Of a stretch of 12,778 nt of DNA, positions 4,276-10,879 are shown piece after piece. The DNA lies in the NCBI GenBank assembly GCA_048882045.1, contig JBHLRZ010000058.1:1-12778 (forward strand). The letters are read 5' to 3'. The notes below the pieces were generated by a model. That model was not told the origin of the DNA and did no database searches. It saw only the letters and a list, made by a program, of their open reading frames with translations. A program made the position numbers and the translations under genes. How positions within the stretch are numbered: position 1 is the stretch's first letter; every line of letters begins with the position of its first letter. The DNA is from Candidatus Thorarchaeota archaeon. Its GTDB lineage: Archaea > Asgardarchaeota > Thorarchaeia > Thorarchaeales > Thorarchaeaceae.

Positions 4276-4695
4276 ATGAAAGTCATGATCATTTGGGAAA
4301 GCACTAGAGGCCGTACAAAAGCTATGGCTGAGGCAATTTGCGAAGGAGTAAACTCAGCAGGGGGCGAAGGAGTTCTAGTAGACGCCAAGGATTTCTCTGG
4401 AGTTGGAGATGCATGTGCAATTGCCGTGGGTAGTTCTACACGAATGAAAAAAGTTCTCCCTATGGTGAAGAGGTCTCTCTCTGAGCTTCCCTCATTGCAG
4501 GGACTTGCTGGAGCGAGCTTTGGTTCCTATGGATGGAGTGGTGAAGCCCCAGATGAGATAGCGGGGAAGTTGATGGAACTGGGTGCTAACCTAGTGATTG
4601 AGAATCCCATCAAGGCGAAGGACTATCCGAGTGAGTCAATTCTCGAAGAATGTAGAAAGCTAGGAATCCTTCTTGTTGAGAATTGCAAGAAATAG
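4276..4695 (+). CDS. Flavodoxin-like protein (resembles the FprA C-terminal domain)
   Basis: IIWESTRGRTKAMAEAI phosphate loop, AVGSST, and SFGSYGWSGEA. Confidence 0.88.
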   Translation: MKVMIIWESTRGRTKAMAEAICEGVNSAGGEGVLVDAKDFSGVGDACAIAVGSSTRMKKVLPMVKRSLSELPSLQGLAGASFGSYGWSGEAPDEIAGKLMELGANLVIENPIKAKDYPSESILEECRKLGILLVENCKK

Positions 4696-4766
4696 AAACA
4701 GCGGTTTAGATGTGTTGCAAAAGTCTTATCATCTTCTGGCTTTCCGACCTGAATGGAGTTGAATGA

Positions 4767-6695
4767 ATGGGCCATATCAAAAGGCTGATTGGATACTCAC
4801 TAAGGCATAAGAGGATTCTATTTGGTTTCCTCCTCTGTGCAGGAATTGGCACATTGTTCAATCTCATGGCTCCACTCGTACTGATTCATATCATTGACAA
4901 CGTTATTCTTCTTGACAATCTAGACGAGCTTCTTCCTTACACTATGGTCTATGTATCTCTAGGTCTCCTCTACGCAATATTCGACACTATAGGTCGCTAT
5001 GGAGCAGCAATTTCCTCTCAGAGAGTGATCTATGATCTCAGAAAGGACATCTATGAGAGTCTCATGGAGAAAGATTTAGCATTCTATGATCAGAATGAAA
5101 CAGGACAGCTGTTGGCCCGAGCAACAACTGATGTCACAACAATGAGGGAGTTTCTATACTGGGGGCTTCGAGTTATGTTCATCGGACTTGCGATGCTCAT
5201 TGGTACTTTCTTTGTGATGTACACAGTAAGCCCAGACCTTACAGTCTACATGTTTGTTCTCATCCCAGTCATTATTGGGTTCATCTATGTATTTGCCAAG
5301 AAAGTCAGACCAGTATTCTATGCGGCAAGGAAACAGTATGGTATGCTGAGCTCAGTCTTAGCGGAGAACGTCTACGGTCACAAGGTTGTCAGATCATACG
5401 CACAGGAAGAAAAAGAAGCAGAGAGAGTTGAAACCGAGAATCGCGGATTCCTTGAGCTTCGAGTGGAGGCGAGCAGACTTCTTTCGTTCTATCATCCTAT
5501 GCTGCCAGCATTGTTCGGTGGTGTTATAGGATTCCTGATCTATATTGGTGGAGATCTTGTAAACCAAGTTCCTGCACCTCTGACACTGGGAGAGTTTGTA
5601 GGATTTGTTTCTCTCGTGGGAATGCTGATGTTACCAGCAAGATTTCTCAGCTGGGGAGTCGGGATGTACCAGCGAGCATCTGCTGCAGGAGAACGAACGT
5701 TCTACATTCTTGATGCTGCTGAGGCGGTAAAGAATCCTGAAAGCCCCATCGCAGTCAAAGACTTTGTGGGATCTGTTGATTTTGATAATGTCTTCTTCAG
5801 TTACTCACAAGACAATTTCATACTACGTGACATATCGATGAGTGTCAAACCAGGACAGATTGTTGCATTGCTAGGCGGAACAGGCTCGGGGAAAACTAGT
5901 CTAGTTAATCTGATTCCGAGATTCTACGATGTTGACAACAAAGGTACAGTGACCTATAATGGGAAGACTTATCGTGTAAATGGGGAGGAATCAGTAAAGA
6001 TTGGAGAGAAGGAGTATACTGCAGACGGGGATGTTATTGTTATAGAGGGAGAATCGGTAAGGATTGAACCTCCAGGAACAGTCTGCGTAAACGGTGTAGA
6101 TGTTAGACTCTATGCTGTAGAGGACCTTAGAAAGCGGATTGGTATGGTCCATCAAGATCCATTCCTGTTCTCAGCAACAATTCGTGAGAACATCGCCTTT
6201 GGAAGACCGAATGCAACATTGGAAGAGGTCGAAGAAGCTGCAAAAGCATCAATGATTCATGATTTCATCATGACTCTTGAGAATGGATATGACACAGAGA
6301 TTGGAGAAAGAGGGGTCACACTAAGTGGTGGACAGAAGCAGAGAATTGCCATTGCCCGTGCGTTGCTGGCAGACCCAGCCATCCTTATTCTCGATGACTC
6401 AACAAGCTCAGTCGATGCAAAGACTGAGATGCTTATCCAGAAAGCACTAGAGAACTTGATGAAAGATAGAACAACTTTCATCATAACGCACCGATTAAGT
6501 ACAGTACGGAATGCTGATTTGATAGTCATGCTTGAAAGAGGGCGAATCGTAGAGATTGGATCCCATCAGGAGTTAGTAGAGGCAGATGGTCTATACAGCG
6601 GGATTTACCAAACTCTTACTGAGATGGAGCTCGCTGCAGTAATTTCACAAGAGTCAGGCGCAGAAGCCAGTATCCGAGGAGGGGACAGACAATGA
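4767..6695 (+). CDS. Type IV ABC exporter half-transporter, subunit 1 (MdlA/TM287-like)
   Basis: N-terminal TMD, Walker A GGTGSGKT, Q-loop VHQD, signature LSGGQ, degenerate Walker B ILILDD, ITHR. Confidence 0.95.
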   Translation: MGHIKRLIGYSLRHKRILFGFLLCAGIGTLFNLMAPLVLIHIIDNVILLDNLDELLPYTMVYVSLGLLYAIFDTIGRYGAAISSQRVIYDLRKDIYESLMEKDLAFYDQNETGQLLARATTDVTTMREFLYWGLRVMFIGLAMLIGTFFVMYTVSPDLTVYMFVLIPVIIGFIYVFAKKVRPVFYAARKQYGMLSSVLAENVYGHKVVRSYAQEEKEAERVETENRGFLELRVEASRLLSFYHPMLPALFGGVIGFLIYIGGDLVNQVPAPLTLGEFVGFVSLVGMLMLPARFLSWGVGMYQRASAAGERTFYILDAAEAVKNPESPIAVKDFVGSVDFDNVFFSYSQDNFILRDISMSVKPGQIVALLGGTGSGKTSLVNLIPRFYDVDNKGTVTYNGKTYRVNGEESVKIGEKEYTADGDVIVIEGESVRIEPPGTVCVNGVDVRLYAVEDLRKRIGMVHQDPFLFSATIRENIAFGRPNATLEEVEEAAKASMIHDFIMTLENGYDTEIGERGVTLSGGQKQRIAIARALLADPAILILDDSTSSVDAKTEMLIQKALENLMKDRTTFIITHRLSTVRNADLIVMLERGRIVEIGSHQELVEADGLYSGIYQTLTEMELAAVISQESGAEASIRGGDRQ

Positions 6696-8494
6696 GTCTG
6701 GACAGAGAAGACGATCCAGATGCAAGGACATACAAGTACTCCGATAGTACACTACTCTGGCGGATGGTGAAGTATCTCCTTGCTTATAGGAAGCTGTTCG
6801 CCTCGGTGGTCATACTAACAGCATTTGGAATCATTATCAGCGTATGGACACCATTTATCATGAGGCAGGCAATTGACGTGGACTTTCCTAGTGGAAATCT
6901 ACAGGCAATCCTCTTCACAGCTTTGTTCTACACTGTTTTGCAGTTTTTTGCATGGGTTACAGCGTATGGTCAAGAATATCTCATGGCCATGATGGGACAG
7001 CAGGCTGTGTATGACATCAGGCAGGATCTCTATACTCATGTCCAAGATATGTCTGAGGAGTTTCATGATCGCTCTTCAGCAGGAAGAGTCATCTCCAGAC
7101 TAACGAACGATGTTGATAGGATGAGTGAGTTACTCAGTGGTGGGCTCATCAGTACTTTTGCTCAAATCTTTGTTGTATTCGCGATTGGTGCGGTCATCTT
7201 CACTGTCGACACAAGACTGGCCATAGCATCTCTCTCGGTCGTACCTGTGCTTCTCATAACTACAATCTATTTCAGGAAAAGACTTAGAGAAGCGTATAGG
7301 ACGACTAGAAAGACCATCTCAGGGGTTACAGCTAACTACGCAGAGAGTATCTCTGGAGCTAAAGTAACCAAGAGCTTTGCCAGAGAGAGGATAAGTGCTG
7401 AGATATTTGATGAGGTGAACAAAACAGATTATGCAGCGAATGTGGATGCAGGGAAAGCACAGGCCACTTTCTTTCCTGTTATCAGGTTCATCAGCGGTCT
7501 CGGTATAGCTGTTGTGCTTCTTGTGGGTGGTTTGTTGTACATCCAAGATCCACTCTCAATGACTTTGGGAACCATTGTGCTGTTTCTTCAGTTCAATGAC
7601 CGATTTTTTAGGCCTATTCTAATCATAGCCAACTTCTACACATCTGTTCAGAGTGCATTCGCAGGAGGTGAACGAGTGTTCACTGTTATTGACACCGAGC
7701 CCGCAGTAGTTGACAGGCCGGATGCTTCACCTATGCCCGAAATCCAAGGACTGATTCAATTTGACATTGATGAATTTCGTTACGGTGATGGACCTGTTGT
7801 GTTGGAAAATTTGCATCTTGAGATACGACCGGGTGAAACTATCGCCCTTGTTGGAGATACTGGAGCTGGAAAAACTACAGTTGTGAGTCTGCTGAATCGG
7901 TTCTATGAAGTGATCGATGGAGCAATCAAGATTGATGGTATCGACATCCGATCTGTAACTCAGAAATCACTCAATGCGAAAATTGGACTCGTTCTTCAGG
8001 ACGCATTCCTCTTCATGGGGACAATCAAAGAGAACATCAGATATGGTAGACCTGAAGCCACAGATGAGGAGATTATCACAGCAACTGAGGCAATCGGAGC
8101 TCGAAGGATTTTCGAAAATTTGCAAGATGGTTTCGATACTGAGGTTGGAGAAAGAGGCAGTCGACTGTCGGAGGGAGAACGCCAGCTTGTGAGTTTTGCA
8201 AGAGCTCTTCTGGCAAACCCGAAGATTCTCGTTCTGGACGAGGCTACAAGTTCAGTTGACGTCTATACAGAGCATGCAATCCAAAAAGGAATGAAAGCGT
8301 TGCTCGCTGGTAGGACATCGATTGTAATTGCACACCGTCTGTCTACCATTGTTAATGCGGATAGAATCATAGTCATTGAAAACGGTAGAATTGTAGAAAT
8401 GGGAAGACACTCAGATCTCATGCAACGTAGAGGAAAGTACTATTCCCTCTATGAGCTCCAGATTAGACCAAGAGCAATCAGGGCATCATCCTAA
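6692..8494 (+). CDS. Type IV ABC exporter half-transporter, subunit 2 (MdlB/TM288-like)
   Basis: ATGA overlap with the upstream gene, preceded by GGAGG. TMD, Walker A GDTGAGKT, degenerate signature LSEGE, Walker B ILVLDE, IAHR. Confidence 0.95.
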   Translation: MSLDREDDPDARTYKYSDSTLLWRMVKYLLAYRKLFASVVILTAFGIIISVWTPFIMRQAIDVDFPSGNLQAILFTALFYTVLQFFAWVTAYGQEYLMAMMGQQAVYDIRQDLYTHVQDMSEEFHDRSSAGRVISRLTNDVDRMSELLSGGLISTFAQIFVVFAIGAVIFTVDTRLAIASLSVVPVLLITTIYFRKRLREAYRTTRKTISGVTANYAESISGAKVTKSFARERISAEIFDEVNKTDYAANVDAGKAQATFFPVIRFISGLGIAVVLLVGGLLYIQDPLSMTLGTIVLFLQFNDRFFRPILIIANFYTSVQSAFAGGERVFTVIDTEPAVVDRPDASPMPEIQGLIQFDIDEFRYGDGPVVLENLHLEIRPGETIALVGDTGAGKTTVVSLLNRFYEVIDGAIKIDGIDIRSVTQKSLNAKIGLVLQDAFLFMGTIKENIRYGRPEATDEEIITATEAIGARRIFENLQDGFDTEVGERGSRLSEGERQLVSFARALLANPKILVLDEATSSVDVYTEHAIQKGMKALLAGRTSIVIAHRLSTIVNADRIIVIENGRIVEMGRHSDLMQRRGKYYSLYELQIRPRAIRASS

Positions 8495-8682: not shown

Positions 8683-9453
8683 TCAGTCCTCCCAGTCGAA
8701 GTCATCAACAGAATCGTATACTCCTCTAGTGTAAGGATGCCATGTCTTGATGGACTTGAGACCCTTCAGTCCTTTCAGACCACGCATAGCACCAGCTACA
8801 GATCTAGTGACTATCGGTGCAATGTCTACACAGTGGTCCAAACCAGCGATGCCGTCCTTGTTGACAATGAGCTGCTTGCCATCAGCGTTTGAGATGACAA
8901 CTCCGGATTCACTCACTGATACGAGATTGTCTTCACCAACAACATGAACCATCTTGCCATAGATGAAGACAAGACCTTTCTTCTCACTCATGACCAGCAA
9001 CACCTTCGTTTCGGAATTGTCCTTCCCGAAGAAGACCCAATTGTCCTTCTTATTGTCAAAGCGGGTCTTAGAGTCTTCTCCATGGACCATGTCCTCTATT
9101 GTAGACTCAACTGAACGGATGAAAGAGTCCGAATCACCGTAATCTTGTTTCTGAAGATCAGAAATATCAGCTTTCTTGGATATGTTCTCTAAGGAAGTTA
9201 GACCTATGAATAGCTGGACCCCCTTCAGGACACCAGATACTGATTTGCCCATTGCTCCCATCTCAGTCTCAGCAATGGCATCCACTGCGAACCGAGATGG
9301 ACCAGAGAATGCTACTCCGATCCTGATTCCATCTTCAAGTAGGTAGGACCAGATGCATCCTGAATCTAGTCTCACGTAGGCTTTCTCATGGGAGATTATC
9401 TCAATCTCCTGTGTTGTAACCATCACATTGCTATCAGGTGTAAATCGCGTCAT
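8683..9453 (-). CDS. Hypothetical beta-rich protein ending in DDFDWED
   Basis: Long ORF with GGAGGA 7 nt upstream of the ATG at 9453, directly after the stop of the upstream gene, which suggests an operon. No family recognised. Confidence 0.85.
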   Translation of the reverse strand: MTRFTPDSNVMVTTQEIEIISHEKAYVRLDSGCIWSYLLEDGIRIGVAFSGPSRFAVDAIAETEMGAMGKSVSGVLKGVQLFIGLTSLENISKKADISDLQKQDYGDSDSFIRSVESTIEDMVHGEDSKTRFDNKKDNWVFFGKDNSETKVLLVMSEKKGLVFIYGKMVHVVGEDNLVSVSESGVVISNADGKQLIVNKDGIAGLDHCVDIAPIVTRSVAGAMRGLKGLKGLKSIKTWHPYTRGVYDSVDDFDWED

Positions 9454-9466
9454 TCTCAAATCCTCC

Positions 9467-10426
9467 TTAGTCTTCCCAATCTAGCGCATCTAGATCGTCA
9501 ATTTCATCTTCGAGCTCCTCTTCCTCCTCAAGCTCCGCCTCTTGAGCCTCTTCGAGTGCTTCACGTGCTTCCTCGAGCTCGTCCTGATGTGACTCGACTT
9601 CATTGGCTGCTTCTTCCAAATCTTCAGCCAGAGACGCGAGGTGTTCCTCAGCTTTCTCAAGGTCAGTGTCTAGTCCTGCATCTTCGAACTCGACATCAAC
9701 AGACTCACCATTGTTCCCTCTTCGCTCTCGTTGTTTCTCAACCCTGTGAGTCAACCATTGGGAGAGTCGGTAGGCTAGCCGTCCTTCCACCGTGACATAG
9801 TAGGTTCCGCGGACTTCGCCTTTTACAACATACCCAGCATCAATCAAGGGATTGAGGTGATGCGTCAATGAACTCCCTGTCTTACCAGTGAACTCCTCAA
9901 TTTCATTGAAACTCTTACCACCAGTCTTGAGATAGTCAAGAATCTTCAAACGCTCCTCATTACCTAGAGGAGCAACAATTTGTGCCACTCTCTCAGGAGG
10001 TATTGACTCAATCATGGATTGCTGTTCTTTTCTCTTCTTGGTCCTACGACGACCCTTTTGAATTCGAATTCCTGGAATCTTCAGTCCTTCGATGTTCCGG
10101 AGACTCATTTCGATTGATTGACCCAGTCCATCCATCATGTTCTCGAGGGAGTCTGTCAAGTCTTCGAGATCAAAATCAAGTCTAGCTACTCGTGGAGCTC
10201 TAGGTGGCTTTGGGGGTTTAATCGGTTTGACTGGTTTTACCCTCTCTGCACGTCTTACCTCAGCCCTACGTCTACGAGCCTCTTCTCTCAGGCGTTGTAC
10301 ATCTTCTCTGCGTCGACGTACATCCTCTTTCTCAAGACGTACATCGTCGACTTCTCGCCGTAGCTCCTCCTTAAGCCTACGGACTTCTTCAAGTTCTTTG
10401 CGAATTTTGTCTATATCGTCACTCAT
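9467..10426 (-). CDS. ArsR-type wHTH regulator with N-terminal charged coiled coil, Pro-rich linker and acidic C-terminal tail ending in LDWED
   Basis: VAPLGNEERLKILDYL...SFNEIEEFTGKTGSSLTHHLNPLIDAGYV...GTYYVTVEG fits ArsR-like wHTH. Start placed at MSDDID (10426; 319 aa) because the 44 upstream codons are AT-rich promoter-like sequence. Confidence 0.88.
   Translation of the reverse strand: MSDDIDKIRKELEEVRRLKEELRREVDDVRLEKEDVRRRREDVQRLREEARRRRAEVRRAERVKPVKPIKPPKPPRAPRVARLDFDLEDLTDSLENMMDGLGQSIEMSLRNIEGLKIPGIRIQKGRRRTKKRKEQQSMIESIPPERVAQIVAPLGNEERLKILDYLKTGGKSFNEIEEFTGKTGSSLTHHLNPLIDAGYVVKGEVRGTYYVTVEGRLAYRLSQWLTHRVEKQRERRGNNGESVDVEFEDAGLDTDLEKAEEHLASLAEDLEEAANEVESHQDELEEAREALEEAQEAELEEEEELEDEIDDLDALDWED
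10247..10372 (-). repeat. Degenerate 21-bp (heptad) tandem repeat within the coding sequence
   Basis: KEELRRE VDDVRLE KEDVRRR REDVQRL REEARRR RAEVRRA. GATGTAC recurs three times at 21-nt spacing. Confidence 0.7.
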
Positions 10427-10440
10427 TGTATTTGTTCGCC

Positions 10441-10470
10441 AACTGTAATAATGTACAGTTTTCATATAAA
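10441..10470 (-). promoter_or_regulatory. TATA-like box and adjacent operator-like inverted repeat of the ArsR operon
   Basis: Minus-strand TTTATAT (10470-10464), followed 3 nt later by AACTGTA-N6-TACAGTT (10441-10460), upstream of the ATG at 10426. Confidence 0.6.
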
Positions 10471-10678: not shown

Positions 10679-10879
10679 ATGTCTAAGAAGAAAGCGAAAG
10701 CTCCAAAGTATACCTTCTTTGTGAAGAAAGCCATTCAAGACTTTGCCAAGGAGAATGGAATGATGGTCGGTAGCGACGCATATGATGCTGTCAATGCTGC
10801 TGTCAATGCCGCCCTTTCTGATGCAGCTGATCGCTGCAAGAAGAATGGTCGTAAGACACTGAAGGCATACGACTTCTAG
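10679..10879 (+). CDS. Archaeal histone-fold protein, alpha3-truncated (face-to-face-like), with a short Lys-rich N-terminal extension
   Basis: 66 aa: alpha1 KKAIQDFAKEN, L1 GMMVGSD, Ala-rich alpha2, then NGRKTLKAYDF-stop (RxTxxxxD histone motif). Has an SD and a downstream terminator. Confidence 0.9.
   Translation: MSKKKAKAPKYTFFVKKAIQDFAKENGMMVGSDAYDAVNAAVNAALSDAADRCKKNGRKTLKAYDF

Follow-up and report, generated by a model that had tools for sequence, protein, structure and literature searches.

Short docking peptides shared by unrelated proteins are considered a hallmark of eukaryotic regulation, and to our knowledge, the SSB and FtsZ tails are among the few prokaryotic examples of such networks that have been described. 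Here, we describe an octapeptide with a tryptophan in acidic surroundings that forms the C-terminus of two proteins encoded side by side in Candidatus Thorarchaeota, an ArsR-type regulator and its partner protein, and of a membrane protein encoded elsewhere in the same genome. The two adjacent genes lie in a 12.8-kb stretch of DNA, called the window below, which is an entire contig (C58) of the 3.6-Mb genome G000 (93% complete) and whose nearest database proteins carry the name Thorarchaeota, an Asgard lineage. Counted back from the last residue, the octapeptide reads hydrophobic (-7), [DE], x, hydrophobic (-4), D, W (-2), x, [DE] (0)-COOH, in a register common to the three families. Comparison of the sequences indicates that it is a real, strongly selected, lineage-specific docking-type peptide common to three unrelated proteins, for which we propose a mechanism.

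The nearest prokaryotic precedent in logic is found among the acidic-aromatic tails of replication proteins, namely, the SSB tail (DDDIPF) and those of gp2.5 and gp4 from phage T7, for which the polymerase offers a single basic site. Within one such system, unrelated proteins end in the same acidic-aromatic tip and are rivals for one site, and the tip can also fold back on the protein that carries it. The aromatic residue is the last one in those tails and the context is replication, whereas the archaeal tail has its Trp at -2 and is carried by a regulator, by the partner of this regulator, and by a membrane protein. Sequestration at the membrane is known for the transcription regulators of the PspA-PspF-PspBC, Mlc-PtsG, and MalT-MalK systems, and the alternation of the regulator or a cofactor between DNA and a membrane protein that we propose is of the same kind. 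However, the proteins described here have no sequence or fold relation to those switches, in which folded surfaces make the contact rather than a shared terminal peptide, and the switch here is a proposal.

Several eukaryotic motifs with a Trp next to acidic residues match the core of the octapeptide by pattern. The TPR domain of the kinesin light chain reads a W-acidic cargo motif, [LM]-[DE]-W-[DE], in acidic stretches, and as far as we know, kinesin-1 is found only in eukaryotes. LDWE of the regulator and MDWD of the membrane protein fit this core in a similarly acidic, unstructured context, and in both cases the motif sits on unrelated proteins, which in the kinesin system share one reader. 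The archaeal motif differs in being longer and C-terminal and in its two fixed hydrophobic positions, -7 and -4, and the partner has F at -4 (FDWE). TPR proteins are present in G000, and none was linked to the motif. The acidic (A) motif of WASP-family proteins, which binds Arp2/3, is likewise an acidic tail in which the third residue from the end is a conserved Trp. It lacks the two fixed hydrophobic positions, however, and there is no WH2 (V) or connector (C) element ahead of the archaeal tails, which instead follow an acidic coiled coil in the regulator, a basic GLK-repeat linker in the partner, and a transmembrane helix in the membrane protein. PF05856 (ARPC4) had no match in G000, nor in any control genome, which makes this a weak test.

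The shuffled ATG8-interacting motif (AIM) of C53/CDK5RAP3, with the consensus IDWG/D, binds UFM1 and ATG8 competitively, and C53, UFM1, and ATG8 have been reported in eukaryotes only (PMC10183829). This motif, too, is an aliphatic-D-W-acidic sequence in an acidic disordered region; MDWD fits it, LDWE and FDWE are near matches, and the published mechanism, in which two partners compete for one motif, is comparable to the competition proposed here. Unlike the archaeal tail, the C53 motifs are internal and repeated. PF02991 (ATG8) and PF03671 (UFM1) had no match in G000, in a search whose control set contained no eukaryotes. Clients of the cytosolic iron-sulfur assembly (CIA) targeting complex carry the signal [LIM]-[DES]-[WF]-COOH, with the aromatic residue last (bioRxiv 10.1101/2023.05.19.541488). 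Here as well, an [LFM]-D-W tripeptide stands at the end of a tail of variable length on unrelated clients or adaptors. In contrast to the CIA signal, however, x-[DE] or more follows the aromatic residue in the archaeal proteins, with two residues after the Trp in the trio and up to ten in distant homologues, and the bearers are not Fe-S proteins. PF01883 (DUF59, Cia2/MIP18) was absent from the matches in the 93%-complete genome, and the same search matched 13 of 14 control genomes.

A reader of eukaryotic type, i.e., an ancestor of the Arp2/3 acidic site, a TPR groove like that of the kinesin light chain, a CIA complex, or a ubiquitin fold like ATG8 or UFM1, would account for the fit of [LM]-D-W-[DE] to the W-acidic pattern and the C53 motif (PMC10183829) and that of [LFM]-D-W to the core of the CIA signal (bioRxiv 10.1101/2023.05.19.541488), and the host is an Asgard archaeon with six ThiS/MoaD-type beta-grasp genes. 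We nevertheless hold such a reader to be exceedingly unlikely. At least two residues follow the Trp here, where the CIA signal requires an aromatic last residue, no DUF59/Cia2 gene was found, the WH2 and connector elements are missing, and no match was obtained for the ARPC4, ATG8, UFM1, or ubiquitin families in searches that had no positive control able to match. A preliminary description of the window, which had noted the common ending of the two adjacent proteins, compared it with the Arp2/3-binding motif of N-WASP and with kinesin light-chain ligands and suggested a protease adaptor, a TPR protein, a cytoskeletal factor, or each other as their partner. We found nothing that points to Arp2/3, a kinesin-type TPR protein, or a cytoskeletal factor. 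Taken as sequence patterns, the motifs of the four eukaryotic systems (Arp2/3, kinesin light chain, CIA, and ATG8/UFM1) resemble the archaeal core, and nothing found here supports any of these systems as the receptor.

The shared octapeptide and its rarity

The regulator gene (window positions 9467 to 10426, minus strand; 319 amino acids) was delimited from its open reading frame (ORF), a match to HTH_5, and a 34-sequence alignment (A2). Its product ends in DDLDALDWED (gat tgg gaa gac taa at 9481-9467, with the stop codon at 9469-9467), so that the octapeptide L-D-A-L-D-W-E-D and the stop together occupy 9467 to 9493. The partner gene follows at 8683 to 9453, also on the minus strand, and encodes 256 amino acids ending in DSVDDFDWED (gac tgg gag gac tga, 8697-8683); this second copy, V-D-D-F-D-W-E-D plus the stop, lies at 8683 to 8709. 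The preliminary description had reported that both proteins end in D-W-E-D immediately before the stop codon, with different codons, and had argued against a recent DNA duplication. The sequence bears out both points: the codons differ at D(-3), at E(-1), and at the stop, and the tails are therefore not a copied piece of DNA.

The ending is nearly unique in the proteome, as a count proposed in the same description showed. Only three of the 4,595 ORFs of at least 100 amino acids in G000 end in [LFMIV]DW.[DE], against 0.10 expected from the position-specific C-terminal composition (Poisson P for three or more, 1.7e-4), and 300 shuffles of the last 30 residues never gave as many as three ORFs with this ending. 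The probability that two of the three would be adjacent by chance is about 1.3e-3. The third ORF is the unlinked gene for the membrane protein, which has ten helices and is encoded on contig C7. Lowering the size limit to 40 amino acids (22,637 ORFs) added no further bearer. A DNA scan for D-W-x-D-stop in five genomes of other genera returned the membrane and partner genes as the only real ORFs, the rest being short random frames.

Relaxed C-terminal patterns added just two proteins in G000, neither of them convincing: a DUF438/hemerythrin-type protein and a TPR protein with an acidic Phe tail. The former, a hemerythrin/PAS-like protein of 465 amino acids (G000:C25:45983-47380), ends in LLDWD, which is the motif minus one residue; the latter, of 292 amino acids (G000:C9:5613-6491), ends in DDDFDEDLLEFQDED. 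A search of the genome for Trp in acidic surroundings gave scattered internal sites only, and full-text literature searches yielded no description of this motif or of these protein families.

Conservation within the genus

Both operon genes keep the tail in all 20 species-level genomes sampled from the genus. The regulator orthologues (20/20) have [LIM] at -7, D at -6, [LM] at -4, D at -3, W at -2, and D, E, or N at 0, and each of these positions is encoded by up to six synonymous codons across the genus. All 20 partner orthologues have the residues V(-7), F(-4), D(-3), W(-2), and D(0), each of them written with two to four synonymous codons. Over the tails as a whole, V at -7 is written with four codons, L at -7 and -4 with six, and D and F with two each, and all three stop codons are used. 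Since the residues are fixed while synonymous codons vary, selection acts on the peptide and not on the DNA. The sequence ahead of the motif varies in length and composition in all three families, as expected for a tethered peptide.

Database searches returned 206 homologues of the partner, and those with names were all from Thorarchaeota or other Asgard archaea; among the matches listed, 120 of 120 end in FDWx[DE]. The conservation of the terminal Trp motif in orthologues, which the preliminary description had proposed as a check, thus holds for the 120 listed partner homologues and for both genes at the 20 genus loci. The retention of the Trp motif in orthologues and its near uniqueness in the proteome give good support to a conserved signal for docking or competition.

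Convergence of acidic tails by chance or through composition, with no shared function, is hardly credible in view of these data. Several proteins of the window do have acidic C-termini that lack Trp, and acidic tails are common in the genome, with D or E at 15% of last positions. Composition of this kind accounts for 0.10 rather than three such ORFs, however, and it would explain neither the strict conservation at the protein level with free synonymous change over 20 species nor the joint presence or absence of the tail on unrelated proteins across genera (see below). The conservation data, as we read them, already contradict it.

One genus locus (L014, G005:C10) has the regulator split into ORFs of 219 and 102 amino acids by a frameshift or an assembly error, and the second piece still ends in LDELDWDD.

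The membrane protein

The third bearer is encoded on contig C7 of G000 (51798-52895, minus strand; 365 amino acids), unlinked to the operon. Its AlphaFold2 (AF2) model has five tandem two-helix hairpins, i.e., ten helices, and the N-terminus is acidic and then poly-Arg. The protein belongs to no known family, and a Foldseek comparison of the model with the PDB gave no match. Its C-terminus, RDFEAMDWDD (...QWKKYRDFEAMDWDD), lies about 13 residues past the last helix. The tail faces the cytoplasm, judging by the basic residues that flank the helices and by its position after helix 10.

The ending RDFE[AS][ML]DW[DEKT]D is kept in 19 of 19 genus orthologues, and the pattern [DE]-hydrophobic-[DE]-x-[LMF]-D-[WF]-x-[DE] is retained by orthologues from another ten genera. 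The family is nearly confined to the Thorarchaeaceae, where it occurs in 57 of 76 genomes, and the tail is kept in eleven genera.

Two unusual copies were seen. A genome of genus g18 has a second membrane gene beside the first (L087, G109:C87:16020-16400) that ends in LDRDD, with Arg in place of Trp, and looks, from its sequence, like a decaying paralogue. A genome of family f5 has a membrane protein (G166:C77:33045-34127) that matches the profile with an E value of 2e-160, which is near the level of genus orthologues, and has no match to the partner; a mis-binned contig or a transfer is possible.

Distribution across genera

The partner tail [FL]-D-W-x-D, at times with one to three more acidic residues, is found in ten genera, and in others a His/Cys-rich or Trp-rich tail stands in its place or the tail is absent. 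Its occurrence coincides with that of the tail on the membrane protein. Both are present in genera g1, g15, g17, g18, g23, g25, g26, g27, g28, and g29, and g21 and g24 have degenerate forms of the two tails. The membrane protein of g22 ends straight after its last helix, and neither the partner nor the regulator of that genus has the motif; in g20, none of the three proteins has the tail. The membrane family was not found in g19 (0/5 genomes) or g16, and the partner tail there is noncanonical. By genus, we found no discordance between the presence of the membrane tail and that of the partner tail. A tree of the partner protein places g22 inside a large clade with tailed genera, and its backbone is without resolution. 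Independent loss of the tail was therefore rejected as a line of evidence, as a single origin is also compatible with this tree.

The regulator behaves differently. Its exact octapeptide occurs only in this genus, at the end of an inserted acidic coiled coil, and this restriction marks the regulator copy as convergent. Elsewhere, the regulator ends in ...[DE]3-W-COOH (g19, g23, and g25) or ...EE-F-COOH (g26, g28, and g29) or has no aromatic residue. The regulator tail as a conserved shared motif, implied in the preliminary description, accordingly holds within the genus (20/20) and not beyond it, where the acidic tail is a different one. The distribution indicates that the motif is older on the membrane protein and the partner and that the regulator gained a look-alike later, which would be expected if something already in the cell reads the motif. 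The aromatic-last regulator tails (loci L046-L048, L052-L055, L059, L060, L070, L078, and L079) may be a separate signal. They are seen even in g19, a genus in which searches gave no member of the membrane family.

Distant partner homologues have one to three extra acidic residues past the motif, and P0129 has ten (ALDWDDDDEGSLSY). Endings such as FDWDD, FDWDDDE, LDWDDEE, LDWHDDE, and ALDWDDDDEGSLSY do not have the fixed carboxylate register of PDZ or TPR-clamp ligands, and the varying number of residues after the motif means that a fixed free carboxylate is not what is read. This bears on the idea that the tail is a C-terminal degron or processing tag, read by a protease, unfoldase, or tagging system that would bring about the joint turnover of the three proteins. 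The motif does stand at or beside the C-terminus in nearly all bearers, and the very small client set is what one would expect of a dedicated signal for regulatory proteolysis. Given that the distance to the free carboxylate is not fixed and that no protease gene is linked to either locus, we regard a degron as distinctly unlikely.

Other distant relatives of the partner (L043, L044, L061, L062, L072, P0143, and P0152) have His/Cys-rich tails, e.g., HHHRHHHEW...CC and HGHHDHHGHGSHHGGHCGGH. These tails look metal binding, a hint that the module may be metal or redox related in those lineages.

The regulator, its operator, and the partner

The start of the regulator was corrected from GTG 10558 to ATG 10426, the start used by all homologues, on the basis of an alignment with 33 of them. 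In the longer ORF, residues 201 to 244 match PF01022 (HTH_5) with 30.6 bits, above the curated Pfam cutoff of 22, and the score against the NCBIfam model HTH_metalloreg, 31.3 bits, is below its cutoff of 55. From the N-terminus, the protein consists of a conserved charged helix, an Arg/Pro-rich linker, a conserved amphipathic helix, the basic patch KGRRRTKKRK, an ArsR-type winged helix, a long acidic coiled coil of variable length, and the terminal tail. The 319 residues include no Cys (translation and alignment A2), and the Cys/His residues by which metal sensors are recognized were not found. The regulator is therefore an ArsR-fold DNA binder and not a classical thiolate metal sensor. The coiled coil before the tail (window positions 9494-9700) varies between about 30 and about 110 residues among the genus members in alignment A2, through LEEAREALEE-like repeats, and the length of the tether is evidently free to change.

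The regulator promoter (10442 to 10470, minus strand) consists of a TATA-like TTTATAT at 10470-10464 and, immediately after it, the palindrome ACTGTA-N6-TACAGT at 10459-10442. In the 3.6-Mb genome, the exact N6 palindrome is present a single time, and most genus loci have the same element after the TATA box. It is likely the auto-operator of the regulator, as predicted from its position, and the regulator is very likely an autorepressor. An additional ACTGTA half-site often precedes the TATA box. Apart from the palindrome itself, there is one near-exact copy (G000:C11:78634), with a 7-nucleotide spacing of the half-sites; it lies inside an apparent intron-bearing tRNA gene and is for that reason not regarded as regulatory.

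The partner matches no Pfam or NCBIfam family. It has a beta-rich, two-lobed core (about residues 1 to 205), a basic GLKGLKGLK linker, a variable spacer, and the tail; its AF2 model is beta-rich and mostly confident over residues 1 to 175, and the last 70 residues are disordered. No usable match to its fold was obtained by a PDB profile search, by Foldseek against the PDB, or in the ESM Atlas searched by shape and by features. In a VIA-align wide search, the best matches were the N-terminal domain of LptD (Z = 5.4) and the TCP sheet of CPAP (Z = 4.5), both below a meaningful level. Full-length cofolding of the regulator with the partner gave 0.00, 0.44, and 0.00 in three runs against a mark of 0.32; these runs were made without controls and were counted neither way.

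Proposed partner switch

We consider it probable that the octapeptide is a short linear docking motif through which the three proteins share or compete for one acceptor, as in a partner switch. The motif stands at the tip of a flexible or extended tether on three unrelated proteins that face the cytoplasm: the membrane protein, the partner, which is always encoded together with an ArsR-type regulator, and in this genus only, the regulator itself. All three tips would fit one acceptor site, where the proteins would gather or compete. The most likely outcome would be a partner switch of the sequestration type, following the logic of PspA/PspF/PspBC or Mlc/PtsG, in which the state of the membrane protein would decide whether the regulator and the partner are free to act at the regulator's own promoter. 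In the most economical model, the switch would thus link the membrane protein to the autoregulated regulator-partner operon. From the sequences, we infer three things: protein binding by the motif, a common site for its three copies, and a partner switch as the outcome. The preliminary description had proposed that the two operon proteins dock on, or compete for, one partner; the docking signal is indeed conserved, and the pair was incomplete, with the membrane protein as the third bearer. Because there are only three clients per genome and the partner tail closely tracks the tailed membrane protein, a general hub is less likely as the acceptor than either a member of the trio or a dedicated partner of low copy number.

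The same tails could instead act as electrostatic mimics in autoinhibition, with acidic-aromatic ends binding basic patches that otherwise contact nucleic acids or membranes, above all the basic patch and winged helix of the regulator. The aromatic-ended acidic tails of phage T7 gp2.5 and gp4 and of bacterial SSB act in this way. The regulator would then be the acceptor, and the partner tail would be an antirepressor. Each protein of the trio does have a strongly basic stretch (KGRRRTKKRK, GLKGLKGLKSIK, and RGRRGRRRSKGK), and every regulator of the family pairs a basic patch with an acidic tail, a tail-less distant relative (L045) having a weak patch. Against this, the register of three positions, hydrophobic at -7 and -4 and Trp at -2, is fixed in three families, as would be expected of a shaped pocket more than of a diffuse basic surface. 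Moreover, the count of basic residues does not track the tail across genera, and there is no obvious reason for DNA mimicry in the tail of the membrane protein, about 13 residues from the bilayer. We therefore regard electrostatic mimicry as unlikely.

Several observations weigh against the docking switch, in which binding is predicted from conservation. The tail does not dock in cis in either AF2 monomer, with pLDDT values of about 25 for the partner tail and 50 to 69 for the membrane tail. In the tail-less g22, there is no excess loss of conserved core residues in the partner, in which only W256 itself changes, or in the membrane protein; the cores are not relaxed, and there is consequently no sign of a tail-dedicated pocket in either. 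The membrane gene has no conserved neighbor at 19 loci from 12 genera, so that its neighborhood reveals no receptor, and the palindrome of the regulator promoter was not found upstream of it. The comparisons between genera are not phylogenetically independent, and the well-supported branches of the partner tree are compatible with a single origin of the tail. Finally, the regulator tail differs in most other genera, and a three-way competition could be limited to this genus.

Should the docking switch hold, the peptide would connect a membrane protein with a transcription regulator and the obligatory partner of that regulator, and the identity of the reader would give a function to three protein families that are now without one. 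The peptide is sharply defined and strongly selected, occurs in the archaeal lineage closest to eukaryotes, and resembles several eukaryotic Trp-acidic motifs. A reader within the trio would make this a new and compact kind of partner switch, and a fourth protein as the reader, provided that it has a eukaryotic counterpart, would bear on the origin of motif-based wiring. A related reading is that the octapeptide is the ligand of an Asgard-specific module ancestral to a eukaryotic Trp-acidic reader, such as a beta-grasp (ATG8/UFM1-like), WD40, or TPR protein. We think this very unlikely; were it true, the Thorarchaeota would already run a small linear-motif network from a membrane protein to transcription, a prokaryotic forerunner of the eukaryotic wiring.

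Gene order at the locus

The regulator and partner genes are separated by a spacer of 13 nucleotides (9454 to 9466, minus strand), which has GGAGGA at 9466-9461, directly after the regulator stop. The spacer is too small for a promoter or terminator, and the two genes are therefore cotranscribed. The partner starts at ATG 9453, 7 nucleotides past GGAGGA; this is most likely its true start, giving 256 amino acids, and an identical database protein has the same length. The regulator stop and the partner start overlap in other genera, and the two genes are probably translationally coupled. Of the 76 genomes sampled from the family, 71 have the pair, with the genes overlapping or nearly abutting, and a divergent form occurs in three other families of the phylum.

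On one side of the operon, a flavodoxin gene and two ABC exporter genes (4276-8494) run convergently to it in a conserved gene order. On the other side, a small gene for a histone-fold protein (10679-10879) is divergent from the regulator, and this order is conserved as well. Among 58 related loci searched with tblastn, the ABC gene was present in 50 and the histone gene in 34, over many genera and including those without the tail.

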